The notes under the pieces were generated by a model. It did no database searches. It was given only the letters and a program-made list of their open reading frames with translations, and was not told the origin of the DNA. Positions 4,785-34,354 of a stretch of DNA of 64,000 nucleotides are shown here, one piece after another. The position numbers and the translations under genes were made by a program. How positions within the stretch are numbered: position 1 is the first letter of the stretch; every line of letters begins with the position of its first letter. Location: contig CAWKMY010000006.1 of the NCBI GenBank assembly GCA_963851055.1, positions 142,965 through 206,964 on the forward strand. Direction: 5' to 3'. This DNA comes from an uncultured bacterium. GTDB taxonomy: Bacteria > Patescibacteriota > Minisyncoccia > Phycocordibacterales > PALSA-1337.

Positions 4785-6077
4785 ATGTGGCAAAGCGAAA
4801 TAGCCAAGATATATCTCACGTTCTTTGCGGTATTATTTTTTCTGGGTGTGCCAACTATTATCTTACATTTTCCTGATCAACTCGCTGTCATAGATAATGT
4901 TTTCAGTAATGCAGTAAGTCAACTAGCCGCAGTTATTATGGTTCACAATCCGAAGTCCTTAGCCGATATAGAATCTCATTATAATGATCAGGGTATGAAC
5001 CCCACCATTTCACCGATAAAAGTTCGTGTTCTCATCGTTCCTGGTCATGAACCAAGTTACGGTGGCGCTGAATATGCGGATCTAAAAGAACGCAATATGA
5101 CAGTAGAGTTGGGGGAAGATCTTTATGATTACCTCGCTAGAGATGGTCACTATCAGACATTCATTACCAGAGATACGACTAGTTGGAGTCCCATTTTTTC
5201 TTCCTACTTTGCTTCAGGAATGAGTGCCATAGCCGCTTGGCGTAGTAATTATGAAAATGAAATGTCTCAAATGATAGCTTTGGGTTCTACTACTTTGGCC
5301 AATCCAAAAGTGATACATAATTCTGTACCAGATAATGTCGCTCTTCGTCTTTACGGCATAACCAAATGGGCAAATGAAAATAATATAGATATAACCATTC
5401 ACATACATTTCAATGATGATCCAACTAGGTCTGGTGATAGTCCTGGAAAATTTTCAGGTCTAGCAGTATATGTGCCCGTGGCTCAATACGAGAATAGCAC
5501 CACCACTCACGCTATCGCTGATGCCGTCTTTAAGAGGTTGTCAAAATATAATGCAGTCAGTAATCTCCCGGCAGAATCCGCCGGTGTGGTAGATGATCCG
5601 GAATTGATAGCGGTCGGAGCAAATAATACTGCTGATAGTGCCAGTATGCTCATCGAATACGCGTATATTTACGAACAACAATTCGCTGATCCGGCTACTC
5701 GTAGCCTGGCCATAAAAGATCTGGCTTATCAGACTTATCTTGGTCTTGAAGATTTCTTCAATTCTAGAGATGCTCGAGCACTGGGGCTTACTTATGACAC
5801 TGTAGCTCTGCCATATAATTGGAAAAATCCGATTTCTGTCGCTGGAACGCAAGGGCCAGACGTTTTCGCTTTACAGACTGCTCTTTCCATAGATGGGGAA
5901 TATCCTCCTATAGATAAGAGTAAAAATGATTGTCCGCGTTCAGGCAAACTCGGACCTTGTACCAAAACGGCTATTTCAGCATTTCAGGAAAAATATGGCA
6001 TTACTGGAGAAGATGGCGCCGTTGGATCGAAAACTCTTCAACTCCTAAATCAACATTACGGAACCAAGACGTTGTAA
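4785..6077 (+). CDS. N-acetylmuramoyl-L-alanine amidase with C-terminal peptidoglycan-binding domain
   Basis: N-terminal TM segment and an Amidase_3-like core. The C-terminal PG_binding_1-like repeat reads GPDVFALQTAL...GAVGSKTLQLL. Confidence 0.7.
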   Translation: MWQSEIAKIYLTFFAVLFFLGVPTIILHFPDQLAVIDNVFSNAVSQLAAVIMVHNPKSLADIESHYNDQGMNPTISPIKVRVLIVPGHEPSYGGAEYADLKERNMTVELGEDLYDYLARDGHYQTFITRDTTSWSPIFSSYFASGMSAIAAWRSNYENEMSQMIALGSTTLANPKVIHNSVPDNVALRLYGITKWANENNIDITIHIHFNDDPTRSGDSPGKFSGLAVYVPVAQYENSTTTHAIADAVFKRLSKYNAVSNLPAESAGVVDDPELIAVGANNTADSASMLIEYAYIYEQQFADPATRSLAIKDLAYQTYLGLEDFFNSRDARALGLTYDTVALPYNWKNPISVAGTQGPDVFALQTALSIDGEYPPIDKSKNDCPRSGKLGPCTKTAISAFQEKYGITGEDGAVGSKTLQLLNQHYGTKTL

Positions 6078-7319
6078 CTCTTCTCTCGCAACTTTCGCGT
6101 CACTCCAAGGAGTCTTTGTTCCATTTGGTCCCATGATATATGGATCAGTGCCTTTGCCTGTGATGATGACAGTGTCACCGGTCTGGGCTTGTTTCAGAGC
6201 CTCACGGATAGCCAAGCGGCGATCCATGATGATGGTCGGTGGATGAGACATGCCCTTGGCTACGTCTTCAACTATATGTTTCGGGTCTTCATCGTACGGA
6301 TCTTCATCTGTCAGTATGACTTCGTCACAGTATTCGTCCGCGAGCCTGCCCATCTCACCGCGTTTCCAAGTATCGCGTCCGCCTCCGGTTCCGCCGAGAA
6401 CGCAGATATTTCTGGAAGAAGGAAAGACTTGGTAGAGCTTCTCCAGAGAATCCGGCGTGTGCGCGTAATCGACTATGACGGTAAAATCCTGGCCTGCCTC
6501 TATCTTCTCCACTCTGCCGCGGATGCCGTCGAACTTTTCAACGGCGCGAACGACCACATCATCAGATACGCCCTGACTCTGCGCCACCGTTATGGCAGCT
6601 AATATGTTATATAGATTGAAAAGCCCGGAAAGCCTTGAATGTACGGTTTGTCCCGCGAATGCAAAAGAAAGGCCTTCGCGATTGATCGAATATGGCTCGA
6701 CTGAATGTATACTGTATGGAATCTTCCTATCGGCCTTACATCCCAAGAATCGCGAACCCTCTTTGTCATCAGCGTTGGCAATCAGGGTACGATTTTTCTT
6801 ATGCGACATGCCCAATCTGCGGGCTATATCAAGTTTTGCGTCGATATACTTTTCATATGAACCGTGAGCCTCTATGTGTTCCGGCGAAATATTGGTGAAT
6901 AGAAATGCGTCCAGGTCTATGAAGTAGTGCCTGTAAGTGATGGCGCCCTGCGAAGTCATCTCTATGATGGCGTAGTCGCATTTCTTGTCCACGGCTTTTC
7001 GCAAAAATCTCTGAGTGAAAAAGCGACCGGGCATGCTCATCTTGTAGAGATTGTCGGATGTCAATTCGTCGACCTTGAACCTGATGGTATTGGAAAGGGC
7101 GGTTTTGTATCCGGCTTCTTCCAGTATGGCATTGAGTATTTCTGTGGTGGAGCTTTTGCCCTTTGTCCCAGTCACGGCTATGACCTTGATCTTGCGCGAA
7201 GGGAAGCGATACCAGACGGCTGACGTGAAAGCCAGTATCCAATGATACGCTGGATTGAGGAATTCAAAGACCGGAGTGGGTATAAATCTACGGGTTTTTA
7301 TGAGGAAAGTGTCCAGCAT
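6045..7319 (-). CDS. murE: Mur ligase family protein (MurE-like)
   Basis: P-loop VTGTKGKSST and DYAHTPDSLE motif. Its 3' end overlaps the convergent amidase 3' end by 33 nt. Confidence 0.7.
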   Translation of the reverse strand: MLDTFLIKTRRFIPTPVFEFLNPAYHWILAFTSAVWYRFPSRKIKVIAVTGTKGKSSTTEILNAILEEAGYKTALSNTIRFKVDELTSDNLYKMSMPGRFFTQRFLRKAVDKKCDYAIIEMTSQGAITYRHYFIDLDAFLFTNISPEHIEAHGSYEKYIDAKLDIARRLGMSHKKNRTLIANADDKEGSRFLGCKADRKIPYSIHSVEPYSINREGLSFAFAGQTVHSRLSGLFNLYNILAAITVAQSQGVSDDVVVRAVEKFDGIRGRVEKIEAGQDFTVIVDYAHTPDSLEKLYQVFPSSRNICVLGGTGGGRDTWKRGEMGRLADEYCDEVILTDEDPYDEDPKHIVEDVAKGMSHPPTIIMDRRLAIREALKQAQTGDTVIITGKGTDPYIMGPNGTKTPWSDAKVAREELQRLGSVMLI

Positions 7320-30404: not shown

Positions 30405-31445
30405 ATGAAACATTCAGATATCCTTATAACTAAGCCTTGCGCCGACTATGAACTTATCGATTCCGGTGAAGGTGAGAAATTAGAACGCTTTGGCAAAGTG
30501 ATTCTCGCTAGGCCGGATCCGCAGGCTTTGTGGCCAAAGCGCCTTTCCGCCGCCGAATGGAAAAAAGCCGACGGGACTTTCGGCAGAGTAAGCAGTTCCA
30601 AAAAAGGAGAAGGTGAGAAAGGAGAAAGGGGTGATTGGTCGCTGGATAAAAAAGCCCAGGAGCCCTGGGTCATTGATTTTGCCAATCTGAAGCTGCGTAT
30701 AAAGCCGACGGCTTTCAAGCATGTCGGGCTTTTTCCGGAGCAGGCGATGAATTGGGAGTGGTTAAGGAATTTGATTAATCGCGAAGCGACACTGCAGGGT
30801 GAAGGGACCTTGCGAGCGCGTCGGCGCGAGCACGAGGAATTTTCCAGCAGGAAAATATCCGTGTCCCTGAATCCTGTGGTGACGCGGAGCGATGATATTG
30901 AAGTCCTCAACCTTTTCGGCTATACCGGCGGCGCCACTCTAGCTTGCGCTCAAGCCGGTGCCAAAGTCGTGCACATAGATGGGTCAAAGACCGCCGTGAC
31001 TTGGGCTAGGGAAAATGCTGAATTGTCTGGTCTCAAAGATAAGCCTATACGCTGGATTGTCGAAGATGCAAGAGCCTTTGTTGAACGAGAGTTGAAGCGT
31101 GGCAAGTCTTATGACGGTATTATCATGGATCCACCAGCATTCGGTCATGGTCCGGAAAATGAATTGTGGAAGATAGAGGAACATTTTCTGAAACTTATAG
31201 AGGATTGTAAAAAGCTTTTGAAGCCAAAACCACTTTTCTTTCTCATCAACGGATATTCAGCGGGATATTCAGCGGTAGCTTATGAAAATAATCTCCTACC
31301 TTTAAAGGAAAAGTTTGGCGGAAATATTGAAACAGGGGAATTGGCTATAGAAGAGAGTAGAAAGAAGCAAGGAGAAGGAATTAAGGAGGAAAACGCGGCG
31401 CGCCTTCTGCCATGCGGCATTTTTGCCAGGTGGGCGTTAAAATAG
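30405..31445 (+). CDS. Class I SAM-dependent (RlmI/RlmK-like) methyltransferase
   Basis: SAM-binding block VLNLFGYTGGATLACAQAGAKVVHIDGS and DGIIMDPPAFG. Confidence 0.7.
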   Translation: MKHSDILITKPCADYELIDSGEGEKLERFGKVILARPDPQALWPKRLSAAEWKKADGTFGRVSSSKKGEGEKGERGDWSLDKKAQEPWVIDFANLKLRIKPTAFKHVGLFPEQAMNWEWLRNLINREATLQGEGTLRARRREHEEFSSRKISVSLNPVVTRSDDIEVLNLFGYTGGATLACAQAGAKVVHIDGSKTAVTWARENAELSGLKDKPIRWIVEDARAFVERELKRGKSYDGIIMDPPAFGHGPENELWKIEEHFLKLIEDCKKLLKPKPLFFLINGYSAGYSAVAYENNLLPLKEKFGGNIETGELAIEESRKKQGEGIKEENAARLLPCGIFARWALK

Positions 31446-31476
31446 GCCTGTAAATAGGGCTTTTGCAGATAATCTA

Positions 31477-31506
31477 TTGACAAATAGGTATATTTGGGTG
31501 TATAAT
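31477..31506 (+). promoter_or_regulatory. Near-consensus sigma70-type promoter upstream of the DGR target gene
   Basis: TTGACA, an 18-nt spacer, then TATAAT, read directly from the sequence. Confidence 0.6.
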
Positions 31507-31742
31507 ATCGTCAAGACTTCTAATTGCACCTGAACTCGATCTCAGCTTCGCTGTTGCGGAGATGTGAGAAAGAGACGGCACCATGATGAAGTGAACATGA
31601 ACTATGAAAATTCAAACTCCTCCGCCAGTTATCCTGGCAGGTCCTGATTCCATCTTTTCCGTGGCCGCCAGTTTTGCGTCCCGGATGAACTCGCTCAAGC
31701 TTTCGCAAGAGCGGGTCGAATGAGATCAAGGATGGCGATCCT

Positions 31743-32351
31743 GTGTTCTGGTCGAAGTTTGATTTGGCACTTATGCCGGATCAGACTGAAACCGCGCGCG
31801 AATACGGCGCTATCCTCCATGACTGGTCGAAATTCTACAAGAAGTATTTCGGCATCGTCGCCGACTTCTCGACCATCCGTATCCCCGCCAAGGTTGTCGG
31901 TTTCGACAGGCTCATCATCGTCGCCGAAGGCCTCTCCATCAATCAGGTCTATGAAACCGGAAAGAAAAATTTCGGTTCGTGGAAATGGTGCAGTGGCGAC
32001 ATCGAGTCGAATATGCGCGTCGAAGAGCGTGGCTCGGTCAAGGTGTCCTATGCTATCTGGGTTCGTAATGGTCAAGAAGCCGATGAAGACCTCAAAAACC
32101 TCTCGGCCGAAATGGTTGACCGACCGCAAGACACCGAGAACTTGCTCGAACGTCTTATCCATGGATTCAAGTTCTGGAGCGAGACCAAAGAGCATCTCGA
32201 TATCGAGACCGTCACACTCTGCGCGTCCTCGCGCTATGCCGACGGCGGTGTTCCGGGCGTGCTTCGCAGCGACGTTGGCGGTGTGGGCGTGGACAGGTAT
32301 GGCCGGCGGCTTGCCATTTCGTGCTTGCGTGCTCGCCGGGCAGTCCGGTAA
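31743..32351 (+). CDS. DGR target (variable) protein, uncharacterised family
   Basis: A protein-like 202-codon ORF starting at GTG. The true start may be elsewhere. The variable C-terminus reads ...TLCASSRYADGGVPGVLRSDVGGVGVDRYGRRLAISCLRARRAVR. Confidence 0.65.
   Translation: MFWSKFDLALMPDQTETAREYGAILHDWSKFYKKYFGIVADFSTIRIPAKVVGFDRLIIVAEGLSINQVYETGKKNFGSWKWCSGDIESNMRVEERGSVKVSYAIWVRNGQEADEDLKNLSAEMVDRPQDTENLLERLIHGFKFWSETKEHLDIETVTLCASSRYADGGVPGVLRSDVGGVGVDRYGRRLAISCLRARRAVR
32220..32348 (+). other. Candidate DGR variable region (VR)
   Basis: Hand count: 9 A in 128 nt (32221-32348) versus 33 A in the preceding 120 nt. All three forward frames are open. 18 of the last 43 codons are NNC. Confidence 0.65.
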
Positions 32352-32381
32352 CCTTAATCTTGTTCCTCCTCATTCACTTAC

Positions 32382-32409
32382 CCCCGAGCAAACGAAAGTT
32401 TGCTCGGGG
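32382..32409 (+). promoter_or_regulatory. Perfect 12-bp hairpin with GAAA tetraloop downstream of VR (DGR target-recognition-type hairpin/cruciform)
   Basis: CCCCGAGCAAAC-GAAA-GTTTGCTCGGGG, starting 30 nt after the target stop codon. Confidence 0.75.
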
Positions 32410-32536
32410 TGTATCTTTTATGCCATTATTATCGTGGTTGTTAAATTGGTCTACCTCGCCATTCGCCAGCTGGTGAAGGCGGAGCAGATAACAATTTGCC
32501 ATATAAAGAAACTGCCTGTCTCTTTTTATACTATGC

Positions 32537-33406
32537 TTGGCCAATGGAACATGGAAACCGGATCCGTATACCATTTCAATCATTCAAGATCCAAAGAAAC
32601 GCACTATTCATGCCGCCAGTGTCCGCGATCGAGTCTTATATCAAGCAGTATATCGGTCATTATATCCTATTTTCGATACCTCATTCATCCATGATGTCTA
32701 TTCTTCTCGCGATTTCAAGGGGACTCATACTGGGGTGAATCGGCTTGAAGTATTTGCTCGAAAGGCTTCACGCAATTATACCAGACCGGCTTTCGCTCTC
32801 AAATGCGACATCAGAAAATTCTTTGATTCGGTGGATCATAATATTTTGTTCGAGTTAATTTCAAAGAAGATTTTTGATAAAAAGCTGCTCGATTTTATTC
32901 TCGCCATCATAGATTCATTTCATCATAGACCCGGCAAAGGCTTACCTCTCGGAAATGTCACCAGCCAATTATTTGCGAATATCTATATGGATGAATTCGA
33001 TCAATTCACCAAACATCGGCTCAAGGCGAAATACTATATTCGTTATTGCGATGATTTCGTCATTCTGGATGATTCACGAGAGACTCTCGAGAGGATTATT
33101 CAACCGATAAGTGAATTCTTGTATGAAAAATTGGTTTTGGAGATCCATCCGCGAAAATTGGAGATCCGTAAACTCCGGCAGGGAGTTGATTTTCTGGGTT
33201 ATGTATCATTGCCTCATTACAAAGTCTTAAGAACGAGTACCAAGAAGAGGATGTTGAGAAAAATAGAGGAGGCTAAGGCATTATTTCAAACAGACACTAT
33301 TTCCAAAAACAAACTCCGTAGCATAGTCGCTTCTTATTTAGGTATGTTGAGCCACTGTGAAAGTTGGGGTGTCAGAAACAAAATTCATGCTATGCTTTCC
33401 GGTATC
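32537..33406 (+). CDS. DGR-clade reverse transcriptase, N-terminally short, no own stop codon
   Basis: RT motifs are present: RTIHAASVRDRV, SRDFKGTH, DIRKFFDSVDH, GLPLGNVTSQLFANIYMDEFD, IRYCDDFVIL, GVDFLGY, SYLGMLSH. The ORF starts at TTG 32537 and runs in frame into folD. Confidence 0.8.
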
Positions 33407-34354
33407 ATGTATGCCAAACTCCTCGACGGCCGTATCGCCAGGACCGAACTGAAAAAGAAGCTTGCTGACAGGGTTTCTGCATTCAAGGCAGAGCAGGGCT
33501 TTTCTCCTACTCTCGCTATTATCCAAGTTGGAGACAGACCTGATACGGCTTCATATATAAAAGCAAAGAAGTCATTTGGATCCGAGATCGGAGTTGAAGT
33601 AAGACACATACATTTGAATGAGAATGTTTCTAAAGAAGAGATTATTTCAGAGATTGATGAATTGAATGGCGATAAGACTATTGGCGGTATAATTCTTCAG
33701 TTACCCTTGCCTGAAGCGCTGAATATCAACAGAAAAGAAATTATTGACTCTATCGATCCTCTCAAAGATACCGACGGTTTGACTTCTTCGAATGTAAATG
33801 GATGGAATTTGGCGACTGAAAATCCGATGTTTGATTCAGTTGGTAAAACCGGTATAATTTGGCCAGCCACTGCCAGAGGAGTGCTTGAACTACTATATTT
33901 TTATAAGATTTTCGTGAAAGACAAAAGAGTTTGTATTGTCGGTCGTTCTGAATTAGTTGGTACACCTATAGCAGCTATGTGCCGAAATCAAGGCGCCATC
34001 GTAATAGTTTGTCATTCTAAGACCATCGATTTGGTGAAAGAAACTCGTGCTTCAGACGTCATCATAACTGCCGTGGGAAGGCCGAACCTTATAACAGCTG
34101 GACATGTGCATTCAGGCCAAGCGGTTATCGATGTCGGTATCAACGAAGTCGCAGCCGATAAATCAAATGCCGCTGGTGTCGAGAAGCTGGAAGAAGAGAT
34201 TCCCAAAAGGAAATTGGTTGGCGATGTCGATTTTGAGGCCGTCAAATCAGTGATCGGCAATTCAGGTGCCATCACTCCAGTTCCGGGAGGCGTCGGACCC
34301 ATGACAGTTCTGGCTCTTTTCGAGAATTTGATGGATTTGTGTGGTAAAATATAA
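33407..34354 (+). CDS. folD: Bifunctional methylenetetrahydrofolate dehydrogenase/cyclohydrolase FolD
   Basis: A complete FolD pattern begins at the internal ATG (MYAKLLDGRIA..., LAIIQVGDRPDTASYIKAKKK, GIILQLPLP, DGL, VVGRSELVGTP, PVPGGVGPMT). Confidence 0.85.
   Translation: MYAKLLDGRIARTELKKKLADRVSAFKAEQGFSPTLAIIQVGDRPDTASYIKAKKSFGSEIGVEVRHIHLNENVSKEEIISEIDELNGDKTIGGIILQLPLPEALNINRKEIIDSIDPLKDTDGLTSSNVNGWNLATENPMFDSVGKTGIIWPATARGVLELLYFYKIFVKDKRVCIVGRSELVGTPIAAMCRNQGAIVIVCHSKTIDLVKETRASDVIITAVGRPNLITAGHVHSGQAVIDVGINEVAADKSNAAGVEKLEEEIPKRKLVGDVDFEAVKSVIGNSGAITPVPGGVGPMTVLALFENLMDLCGKI

Follow-up and report, generated by a model that had tools for sequence, protein, structure and literature searches.

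A diversity-generating retroelement reverse transcriptase frame that enters folD without a stop codon in Patescibacteria, seen in a decayed copy and its relatives

In a 64,000-nucleotide stretch of DNA from an uncultured member of the Patescibacteriota (contig CAWKMY010000006.1, positions 142,965 to 206,964; the whole stretch is called the window here), the reading frame of a reverse transcriptase (RT) runs directly into folD, the gene for a bifunctional one-carbon enzyme. Our data make it probable that the window holds the decayed relic of a chromosomal diversity-generating retroelement (DGR) whose RT frame runs into folD, that FolD is made from its own promoter and from ATG 33407, and that a fusion polypeptide would be made only in relatives whose element is intact. 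In the proposed mechanism, a DGR would have come to lie between a methyltransferase gene and folD in this Patescibacteria lineage, with its stop-less RT frame entering folD. In a host with leaderless mRNAs, the folD promoter TGcTATGCT would sit within the last RT codons and the folD ATG just after them, and FolD would be transcribed and translated alone from ATG 33407, as sequence patterns and comparative data suggest. In the intact relatives, ribosomes starting at the RT start would read through to give a predicted RT::FolD polypeptide; the RT::FolD open reading frame (ORF) is the only RT of these intact DGRs, in which both the continuity of the ORF and the adenine-specific mismatches are observed. 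In the window, a recent deletion of ~730 bp appears to have taken the template repeat (TR), avd, the RT start and ~55 RT codons, and the target gene is frameshifted. The 605-codon ORF of the window would then be a relic and not a working fusion gene, with FolD most likely its only functional product. The features at the centre of this argument are the following.

32540..33406, plus strand: remnant of the DGR RT, 289 codons (288 aligned to the RT of the related locus L001), motifs intact, N-terminus missing
33388..33396, plus strand: extended -10 promoter-like motif TGcTATGCT in the last RT codons, 10 nt before the folD ATG
33407..34354, plus strand: folD, bifunctional methylene-tetrahydrofolate dehydrogenase/methenyl-tetrahydrofolate cyclohydrolase, 315 amino acids (aa), complete (Pfam, NCBIfam and homologues)

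The program-made list of ORFs gives a single frame from TTG 32537 to 34354, 605 aa, which joins the RT to FolD. Pfam finds RVT_1 at aa 20-222 of this ORF (81 bits), THF_DHG_CYH at aa 296-413 (profile positions 1-115 of 115) and THF_DHG_CYH_C at aa 439-600, all above their gathering scores. Across the junction the letters run in frame from AGT TGG GGT through GCT ATG CTT to GGT ATC ATG (33407) TAT GCC AAA, and inspection of the window sequence between the RT tail and ATG 33407 revealed no stop codon, no spacer and no purine-rich Shine-Dalgarno (SD) sequence. The ~290 open codons upstream of folD are not a product of chance, because they are RT coding sequence whose protein is 87% identical to the RT of L001. 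This RT part is truncated at its N-terminus: TAA at 32504-32506 precedes it, and ~55 residues present in all homologues are missing. An earlier sequence-only reading of this DNA had described an RT frame entering folD without a stop and a complete FolD opening at ATG 33407, and the ORF list, the two full-length FolD domains and the sequence itself bear this out. It had also pointed to the lack of a spacer or purine-rich ribosome-binding site before folD, which is correct, but SD-like motifs precede only 6 of 61 window ORFs and are thus so rare in this genome that the missing site is uninformative.

Relatives were found by searching with the 605-aa ORF, and their frames were compared by local tblastn. 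RVT_1 together with both FolD domains is present in P0002 (643 aa, 77% identical, ENA), P0003 (623 aa, 69% identical, JGI), P0004 (651 aa, 50% identical, JGI and Logan) and P0005 (on a 6.3-kb JGI contig), while P0006, P0009, P0010 and P0014 are FolD proteins that open with an RT C-terminal region. Automatic annotation at JGI already gives both functions to P0003 and P0004. These loci share with the window the gene order DsbA, VKOR, S-adenosylmethionine (SAM)-methyltransferase, retroelement, folD, SIMPL, secE, nusG, rplK and DHFR. RT and FolD lie in the same tblastn frame at L001/L017, L002, L003/L004, L005, L029, L030/L031 and L032. A stop or frame offset between the two genes at orthologous loci, which the sequence-only reading had named as the observation that would count against it, was seen at L006/L023 only, where the RT ends and folD starts at 6210 in a TAATG stop/start overlap. 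The in-frame junction is found in at least eight independent assemblies from different samples and pipelines, with FolD 50-75% identical to that of the window (the 89% FolD identity of L018 refers to L001, not to the window), and the junction nucleotides ATGnTATGCTTTC..ATCATG are conserved among the fused loci. When the window is compared to L001, its RT part is better conserved than its FolD, which is 71% identical. Since FolD identity among the fused lineages is only 50-75%, these sequences argue that the stop-less RT-folD junction of the Patescibacteria loci is old and is not an indel artefact.

FolD itself is complete. It reaches 104.6 bits with PF00763 (cut-off 32.8, profile 1-115 of 115) and 161.5 bits with PF02882 (cut-off 27), and the motifs SYIKAKK, QLPLP, KDTDG and PGGVGPMT are all present. 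The protein falls below the NCBIfam equivalog cut-off (239 compared to 333 bits) because it is divergent, and it carries a lineage-specific insertion (LATENPMFDSVGKTGI). The NCBIfam FolD models align from profile positions 1-2, at ORF residues 291-293, and translation from ATG 33407 gives MYAKLLDGR, which fits the canonical FolD N-terminus M-x-x-x-L-L-D-G-R. Fused and unfused relatives alike keep this Met, with the single exception of L003; there the Met is 18 codons farther upstream, stands the canonical 6 nt after TGCTATATT and begins a Pro/Ser/Thr-rich linker.

A -10 box directly before the ATG is the architecture of leaderless mRNAs. We built -10 statistics specific to this genome, since a generic sigma-70 scan demands a -35 box. 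A -10 box (at least 5/6 match) is located 3-12 nt upstream of 31% of gene starts compared to 3.5% of internal ATGs; the commonest spacing is 6 nt. About a third of the window ORFs have a TATAAT/TATACT-like box ~6 nt ahead of the ATG, in many cases preceded by TG. Starts with such boxes include those at 1991, 4785, 10831, 23272, 37891 (minus strand), 51816, 55495 and 63170. The extended form, TGnTAnnnT, precedes 11 of 65 window gene starts compared to ~1% expected, a 15-fold enrichment. These patterns point to mRNAs that are predominantly leaderless in the genome of the window. One paper found to contain both 'leaderless' and Patescibacteria applies the former word to the ribosome factor YchF, not to gene starts.

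The sequence-only reading had proposed to look for a folD promoter inside the 3' end of the RT, and the candidate is the extended -10 motif at 33388-33396. A scan of the window and 19 other loci placed TGnTAnnnT 3-10 nt ahead of the folD ATG in the window and in 18 of the others (the exception is L010), in fused, unfused, decayed and RT-free loci alike; the 18 include the RT-free loci L007-L009, L013, L015 and L022 as well as L018-L021. With a background of 0.0009 per nt, the chance of such a motif is below 1% per folD locus. Furthermore, the motif is read as V-C-S in the RT frame of L030 and as A-M-L in the window; the two loci read it in different RT frames, which indicates that it is the nucleotides that are conserved and not the RT amino acids. 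Thus there is strong comparative support for a putative promoter and start of folD's own, embedded in the 3' end of the RT, and of the explanations offered before, internal initiation of FolD is the one that the retained ATG and upstream motif support well. The start of the 605-aa ORF is a different matter. TTG 32537 sits 4 nt after a TATACT box, TTG is a poor start on a leaderless mRNA, and judged from its sequence this codon is an unlikely initiator.

The RT belongs to the DGR type, an affiliation missed by the sequence-only reading, which also overlooked that the element in the window is decayed and that this organism makes little use of ribosome-binding sites. In the window its motifs LPLGNVTSQLFANIYM and YCDD are intact and motif 4 has the (I/L)GxxxSQ form of the DGR clade. 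The best match in the PDB of the full-length L001 RT is bRT of the Bordetella phage DGR (8ub7_A, E = 1.8e-37), with residues 13-322 aligned to 11-304 of 328. Matches to Drt2, Drt3 and Cas6-RT-Cas1 are weaker (E = 1e-6 to 1e-10, with Drt2/Drt3 at 1e-6 to 1e-7), and group II intron, retron and DRT enzymes all match far below bRT. Beyond the last aligned bRT position there are 22 residues in the fused RT and 24 in bRT, and stand-alone homologues terminate there too, which indicates that FolD begins where the RT would normally stop.

Four relatives have a complete DGR cassette, consisting of a target gene with its variable region (VR), a TR, Avd and RT::FolD. The target gene (244-271 aa, VR at its 3' end) is followed by the TR 354-385 nt downstream, by avd on the opposite strand and then by the RT. 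The minus-strand Avd matches PF22296 (bAvd) in L002 and L029, and in L001 it matches NF033474 below the cut-off (E = 1.8e-8). Mismatches between TR and VR fall at TR adenines in 19 of 19 cases in L001, 21 of 22 in L002 and 23 of 26 in L003, and TR/VR pairs are also present in L029, L030 and L006. Between the TRs of L001 and L002, 29 of 33 differences are at non-A positions, and every VR tracks its own TR. As the VRs track the TR of their own lineage, retrohoming postdates the split of the lineages, and since the lineages share the junction sequence we infer that it occurred with the RT already joined to folD.

Two other properties of the elements in relatives may concern their expression. A GC-rich hairpin with a T-run (GAGGCCTTAGGGCCTCTTTT) follows directly after the TR in L001 (1240-1265) and L030 (2857-2885). 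Given this hairpin and a TATACT block ~70 nt upstream of the TR, the TR RNA of L001/L030-type DGRs looks like a separate small transcription unit and not like one segment of an avd-TR-RT transcript. The second property is a run of 9-11 G at the 5' end of the RT, which encodes a conserved S-G-G-G and is kept as a pure-G tract in all intact DGRs of this RT clade despite saturated synonymous divergence; the region is deleted in the window.

RT 5' G tract: L001 1624-1633; L002 5877-5886; L003 6060-6068; L029 4217-4227; L006 5244-5253; L033 2817-2826

In L029 the 11-G tract leaves the conserved ATG out of frame with the RT. That RT had been taken as truncated by ~190 aa, a reading that we rejected when tblastn and translation gave a full-length RT with its ATG frame-shifted by the tract. 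The poly-G tract may be a slipped-strand on/off switch for RT expression.

The copy in the window retains fewer of these parts, and its remaining features are the following.

31477..31506, plus strand: sigma-70-type promoter upstream of the target gene, TTGACA, 18 nt, TATAAT (12/12 consensus match)
31520..31605, plus strand: conserved untranslated leader before the target gene (DNA alignment with L005 and L001)
31606..32351, plus strand: DGR target (variable-protein) gene, a pseudogene; orthologues are single ORFs of 244-271 aa
32228..32344, plus strand: VR at the 3' end of the target gene (117-nt alignment with the L001 TR)
32382..32409, plus strand: GC-rich hairpin with a 12-bp stem and a GAAA loop, then a T-rich run, ~31 nt past the target stop and 37 nt past the aligned VR
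32499..32539, plus strand: conserved 41-nt block CCATATAAAGAAACTGCCTGTCTCTTTTTATACTATGCTTG with the -10 box TATACT (32527-32532), identical to L001 throughout
32539..32541, no strand: deletion junction, at which ~730 bp of L001 (about 1056-1785) are absent

In the alignment of the window with L001, near-identity extends from the VR through the hairpin and the 41-nt block and then jumps directly to RT codon ~56; the ~730 bp that are missing hold the TR, the minus-strand avd and the 5' end of the RT with its start and first ~55 codons. The 64-kb window gave no TR-like repeat, either in a repeat search of 28-38 kb or in blastn (word size 7) of 31400-32600 against all 64 kb, and avd is absent between 32352 and 32537. 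The 41-nt block lies ~70 nt upstream of the TR in relatives (in L001 it ends at ~1055 and the TR starts at 1123), where it is probably the promoter of the TR RNA. An extra G near 31717, seen by alignment with L005 and L001, splits the target gene into 31606-31722 and the frame of ORF 31743-32351. The VR still looks A-diversified, with 22 of its 30 mismatches to the L001 TR at TR adenines. It stands at the 3' end of the target ORF, which ends at 32351, and is followed by a GC-rich hairpin with a GRNA-type loop, as in known DGR target sites, where a hairpin/cruciform with a GC-rich stem and a 4-nt GRNA loop is located 4-34 bp after the VR (PMC3240598). The window has neither a complete RT nor an intact target gene. 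Three DGR features (TR, Avd and a complete RT) are missing from the window copy, whereas the relatives have all the defining features. With TR, avd and the RT start lost and the target gene frameshifted, the element can no longer carry out mutagenic retrohoming. Between the window and L001 the dN/dS ratio (nonsynonymous to synonymous divergence) of the RT part is ~0.04; dS is saturated (pS, the proportion of synonymous differences, is 0.6-0.8), hence only dN and a relative-rate comparison were used. The RT-part dN to the outgroup L002 is 0.127 for the window and 0.128 for L001, and as the remnant's dN equals that of L001 it has not yet drifted and the deletion is recent. By all these sequence features, the DGR of the window is dead, and recently so.

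Two parts of the window element deserve mention in their own right. In comparison with L005 and L001, the ~90-nt leader at 31520-31605 is conserved more strongly than the coding sequence downstream of it; it matches no Rfam family, a scan of 31300-33500 having given just a chance snoRNA match (E = 0.7). Its role may be regulatory, and a leader of this kind would stand out among leaderless genes. The VR-proximal hairpins of the window (32382-32409) and L001 (~895-922) share identical 12-bp stems. Their loops, GAAA in the window and TTTC in L001, are reverse complements of each other, which is what an inversion of the loop would give. In phage BPP-1, replacement of the GAAA loop by CTTT abolished homing (PMC3240598).

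Other loci show different stages of decay. In L005, on an 876-kb chromosome (OY969557.1), the last ~110 RT codons remain. Its target gene ends in TR-like, Asn-codon-rich sequence followed by the sequence that usually comes after the TR (5780-5954), with one repeat copy, which suggests VR-TR recombination or assembly collapse besides the loss of avd and two thirds of the RT. The RT of L030 has an internal deletion and an in-frame stop. In L018-L021 the last 13-16 RT codons precede folD, and L022 has no RT sequence. A direct duplication of a ~20-nt unit (GATATAGAAACGATGAAGAT) lies directly upstream of the vestigial RT tail at about 3950-4010 of L018, as well as in L020 and L021, and these three loci, which have lost the DGR, have an unrelated 138-aa minus-strand ORF at its former site.

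How the stop codon was lost is suggested by L006, in which TATAATG supplies both the RT stop (its TAA) and, overlapping with it, the ATG of folD. The fused lineages have a -10 box that contains no stop triplet (TATGCT) at the matching site, and ~13 extra nt align the frames. The simplest origin for the missing RT stop would be that this codon once belonged to the downstream promoter and was then lost. FolD is also not the only partner. Among 50%-identity cluster representatives, where the full RT-FolD fusions are non-representatives and cannot be counted, other RTs of this clade continue in frame into DNA polymerase III delta (P0128 and P0147, two representatives less than 50% identical), a transglutaminase-like protein, a MATCAP-like protein and HTH_40 (the latter three among P0153, P0238 and P0197). 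The locus of P0128 (L033, 2794-4779) holds all parts of a DGR, including a minus-strand avd, with 14 of 14 A-specific TR/VR mismatches within the repeat, and its RT enters holA at a conserved Met. These other fusions speak for a general tendency of RT genes of this clade to continue into whichever gene follows, more than for a specific partnership of RT and FolD.

A bolder proposal is that active, vertically inherited DGRs of Patescibacteria use an RT made as one polypeptide with an essential enzyme (FolD, or HolA in sister elements), that this fusion is under selection, and that the window shows such an element shortly after breaking. We regard this as tentative and rather doubtful. If true, linkage to a gene that the cell cannot do without could hold the retroelement in place, or the fusion could tie mutagenic retrohoming to replication or to nucleotide/one-carbon metabolism.

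Other explanations of the window ORF have to be weighed against a relic from which FolD is expressed on its own. The 605-aa ORF might yield a working bifunctional protein to which the truncated RT still contributes, for instance with TTG 32537 as start codon and transcription driven by the former TR promoter. This would fit the 290 codons that are still open with all RT palm motifs intact, the higher conservation of the RT part than of FolD with respect to L001 (87% compared to 71%), a window branch that has no excess of nonsynonymous change and the TATACT box 4 nt before TTG. However, with TR and avd absent and the target frameshifted there is no DGR role left for such a protein, the ~55 missing N-terminal residues are conserved in all homologues and align with bRT 11-60, the 4-nt spacing is off the genomic mode, L030 already has an in-frame stop in its RT, and a recent deletion explains the conservation of the RT equally well; we find a functional protein of this kind very unlikely. 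The sequence-only reading had also considered a genuine fusion protein, and that suggestion holds up as plausible for the relatives with intact DGRs and is doubtful for the window, where the RT start, ~55 codons, TR and avd are lost. Alternatively, FolD might have no start of its own and be made only by ribosomes that arrive through the RT frame, in an obligatory fusion or by coupling, which would explain why the frame is kept open. The linker from the SHC motif to Met is 16, 13 or 11 codons long depending on the lineage and always in frame, and decayed loci retain long open RT remnants, both as such dependence would predict. Against it, loci with little or no RT (L018-L022 and L007-L015) keep TGnTAnnnT and the ATG, indicating an independent start in the lineage, a stop precedes folD in L006, and the linker indels (~3 in-frame events compared to 1 out-of-frame) are a small, ascertainment-biased count that is not significant at roughly P = 0.1. 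An obligatory dependence of FolD on the RT frame is therefore improbable.

It is hardly credible that the RT stop is masked by a sequencing or assembly indel and that RT and folD are separate, non-overlapping genes. L006/L023 do have a stop, in their TAATG overlap, and metagenome assemblies can hold indels, but the stop-less junction recurs with conserved nucleotides in more than eight independently assembled contigs. This in-frame recurrence across ENA, JGI, NCBI and Logan assemblies disposes of the indel error that had been among the options offered at the outset. Some observations do weigh against a decayed relic with an independently expressed FolD. The folD promoter and leaderless start are read from sequence patterns, the spacing of 10 nt between -10 box and ATG in the window group is above the genomic mode of 6, and the generic sigma-70 scan, which requires a -35 element, flagged no promoter before folD. 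RT remnants of 100-290 codons are open in independently decayed loci (the window, L005 and L030), so that translation through them could matter. Moreover, the deletion and the frameshift in the window could be variants or errors of metagenome assembly. On balance we still consider the decayed DGR relic with its own folD promoter and start to be the probable reading.

To our knowledge, no natural system other than DGRs is known to hypermutate proteins in a targeted way. Their RTs have hitherto been treated as stand-alone proteins that act with Avd. In these loci the ORF of a DGR RT is joined to an essential metabolic gene, and the arrangement persists among relatives whose FolD is only ~50% identical. 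If the RT::FolD protein is made, bRT-type enzymes tolerate a C-terminal partner of 300 residues, which would be useful for engineering. The natural series from intact to unfused, truncated and vestigial elements also shows how chromosomal DGRs are lost. In a leaderless genome the promoter and start of a downstream gene can sit in the last codons of the upstream gene, and gene callers then merge or mis-start such genes; for the window, ATG 33407 is the start to annotate for folD, and the RT part is best labelled a pseudogene remnant of a DGR. The sequence-only reading knew of no description of a tie between a retroelement transcript and folD, and our literature searches agree: full-text searches and term searches of the DGR surveys of Wu 2018 (PMC5758913) and Roux 2021 (PMC8144416) gave no description of a DGR RT-enzyme fusion, nor did a term search of the 2021 FEMS review of prokaryotic RTs (PMC8632793). 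Cellular DGRs of Patescibacteria/Candidate Phyla Radiation form the 'DGR clade 2' of Roux et al. 2021 (PMC8144416).

The element resembles known DGRs, with the Bordetella phage BPP-1 (bRT, Avd, TR and a VR in mtd) as prototype, in that its RT is homologous to bRT over the whole length and has the LGNxxSQ motif, in the VR at the 3' end of the window target with its GAAA-loop hairpin (compare PMC3240598), and in relatives that have TR, Avd and A-specific differences. It differs from them in an RT ORF that continues, with no stop, into the housekeeping gene folD, in a TR that appears to be a separate unit and in an avd on the opposite strand. FolD has both domains, the motifs and the same gene place as the folD of RT-free relatives, and differs from an ordinary FolD in the RT sequence in frame upstream, its divergence and its lineage-specific insertion. 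Like RTs with C-terminal domains (AbiA/AbiK, UG/DRT defence RTs and RT-Cas1), the RT described here is followed by a second domain in one ORF. Those RTs, however, belong to other clades and their partners are dedicated effector or integrase modules, whereas the partner here is an unrelated housekeeping enzyme that seems to keep its own start codon and promoter. Finally, the TAATG overlap of L006 and the -10 boxes of the window are reminiscent of the stop/start overlaps (TAATG/ATGA) with embedded promoters of leaderless-rich actinobacteria and Deinococcus; unlike in such gene pairs, the upstream stop has been lost entirely, and the read-through ORF persists across deep divergence.

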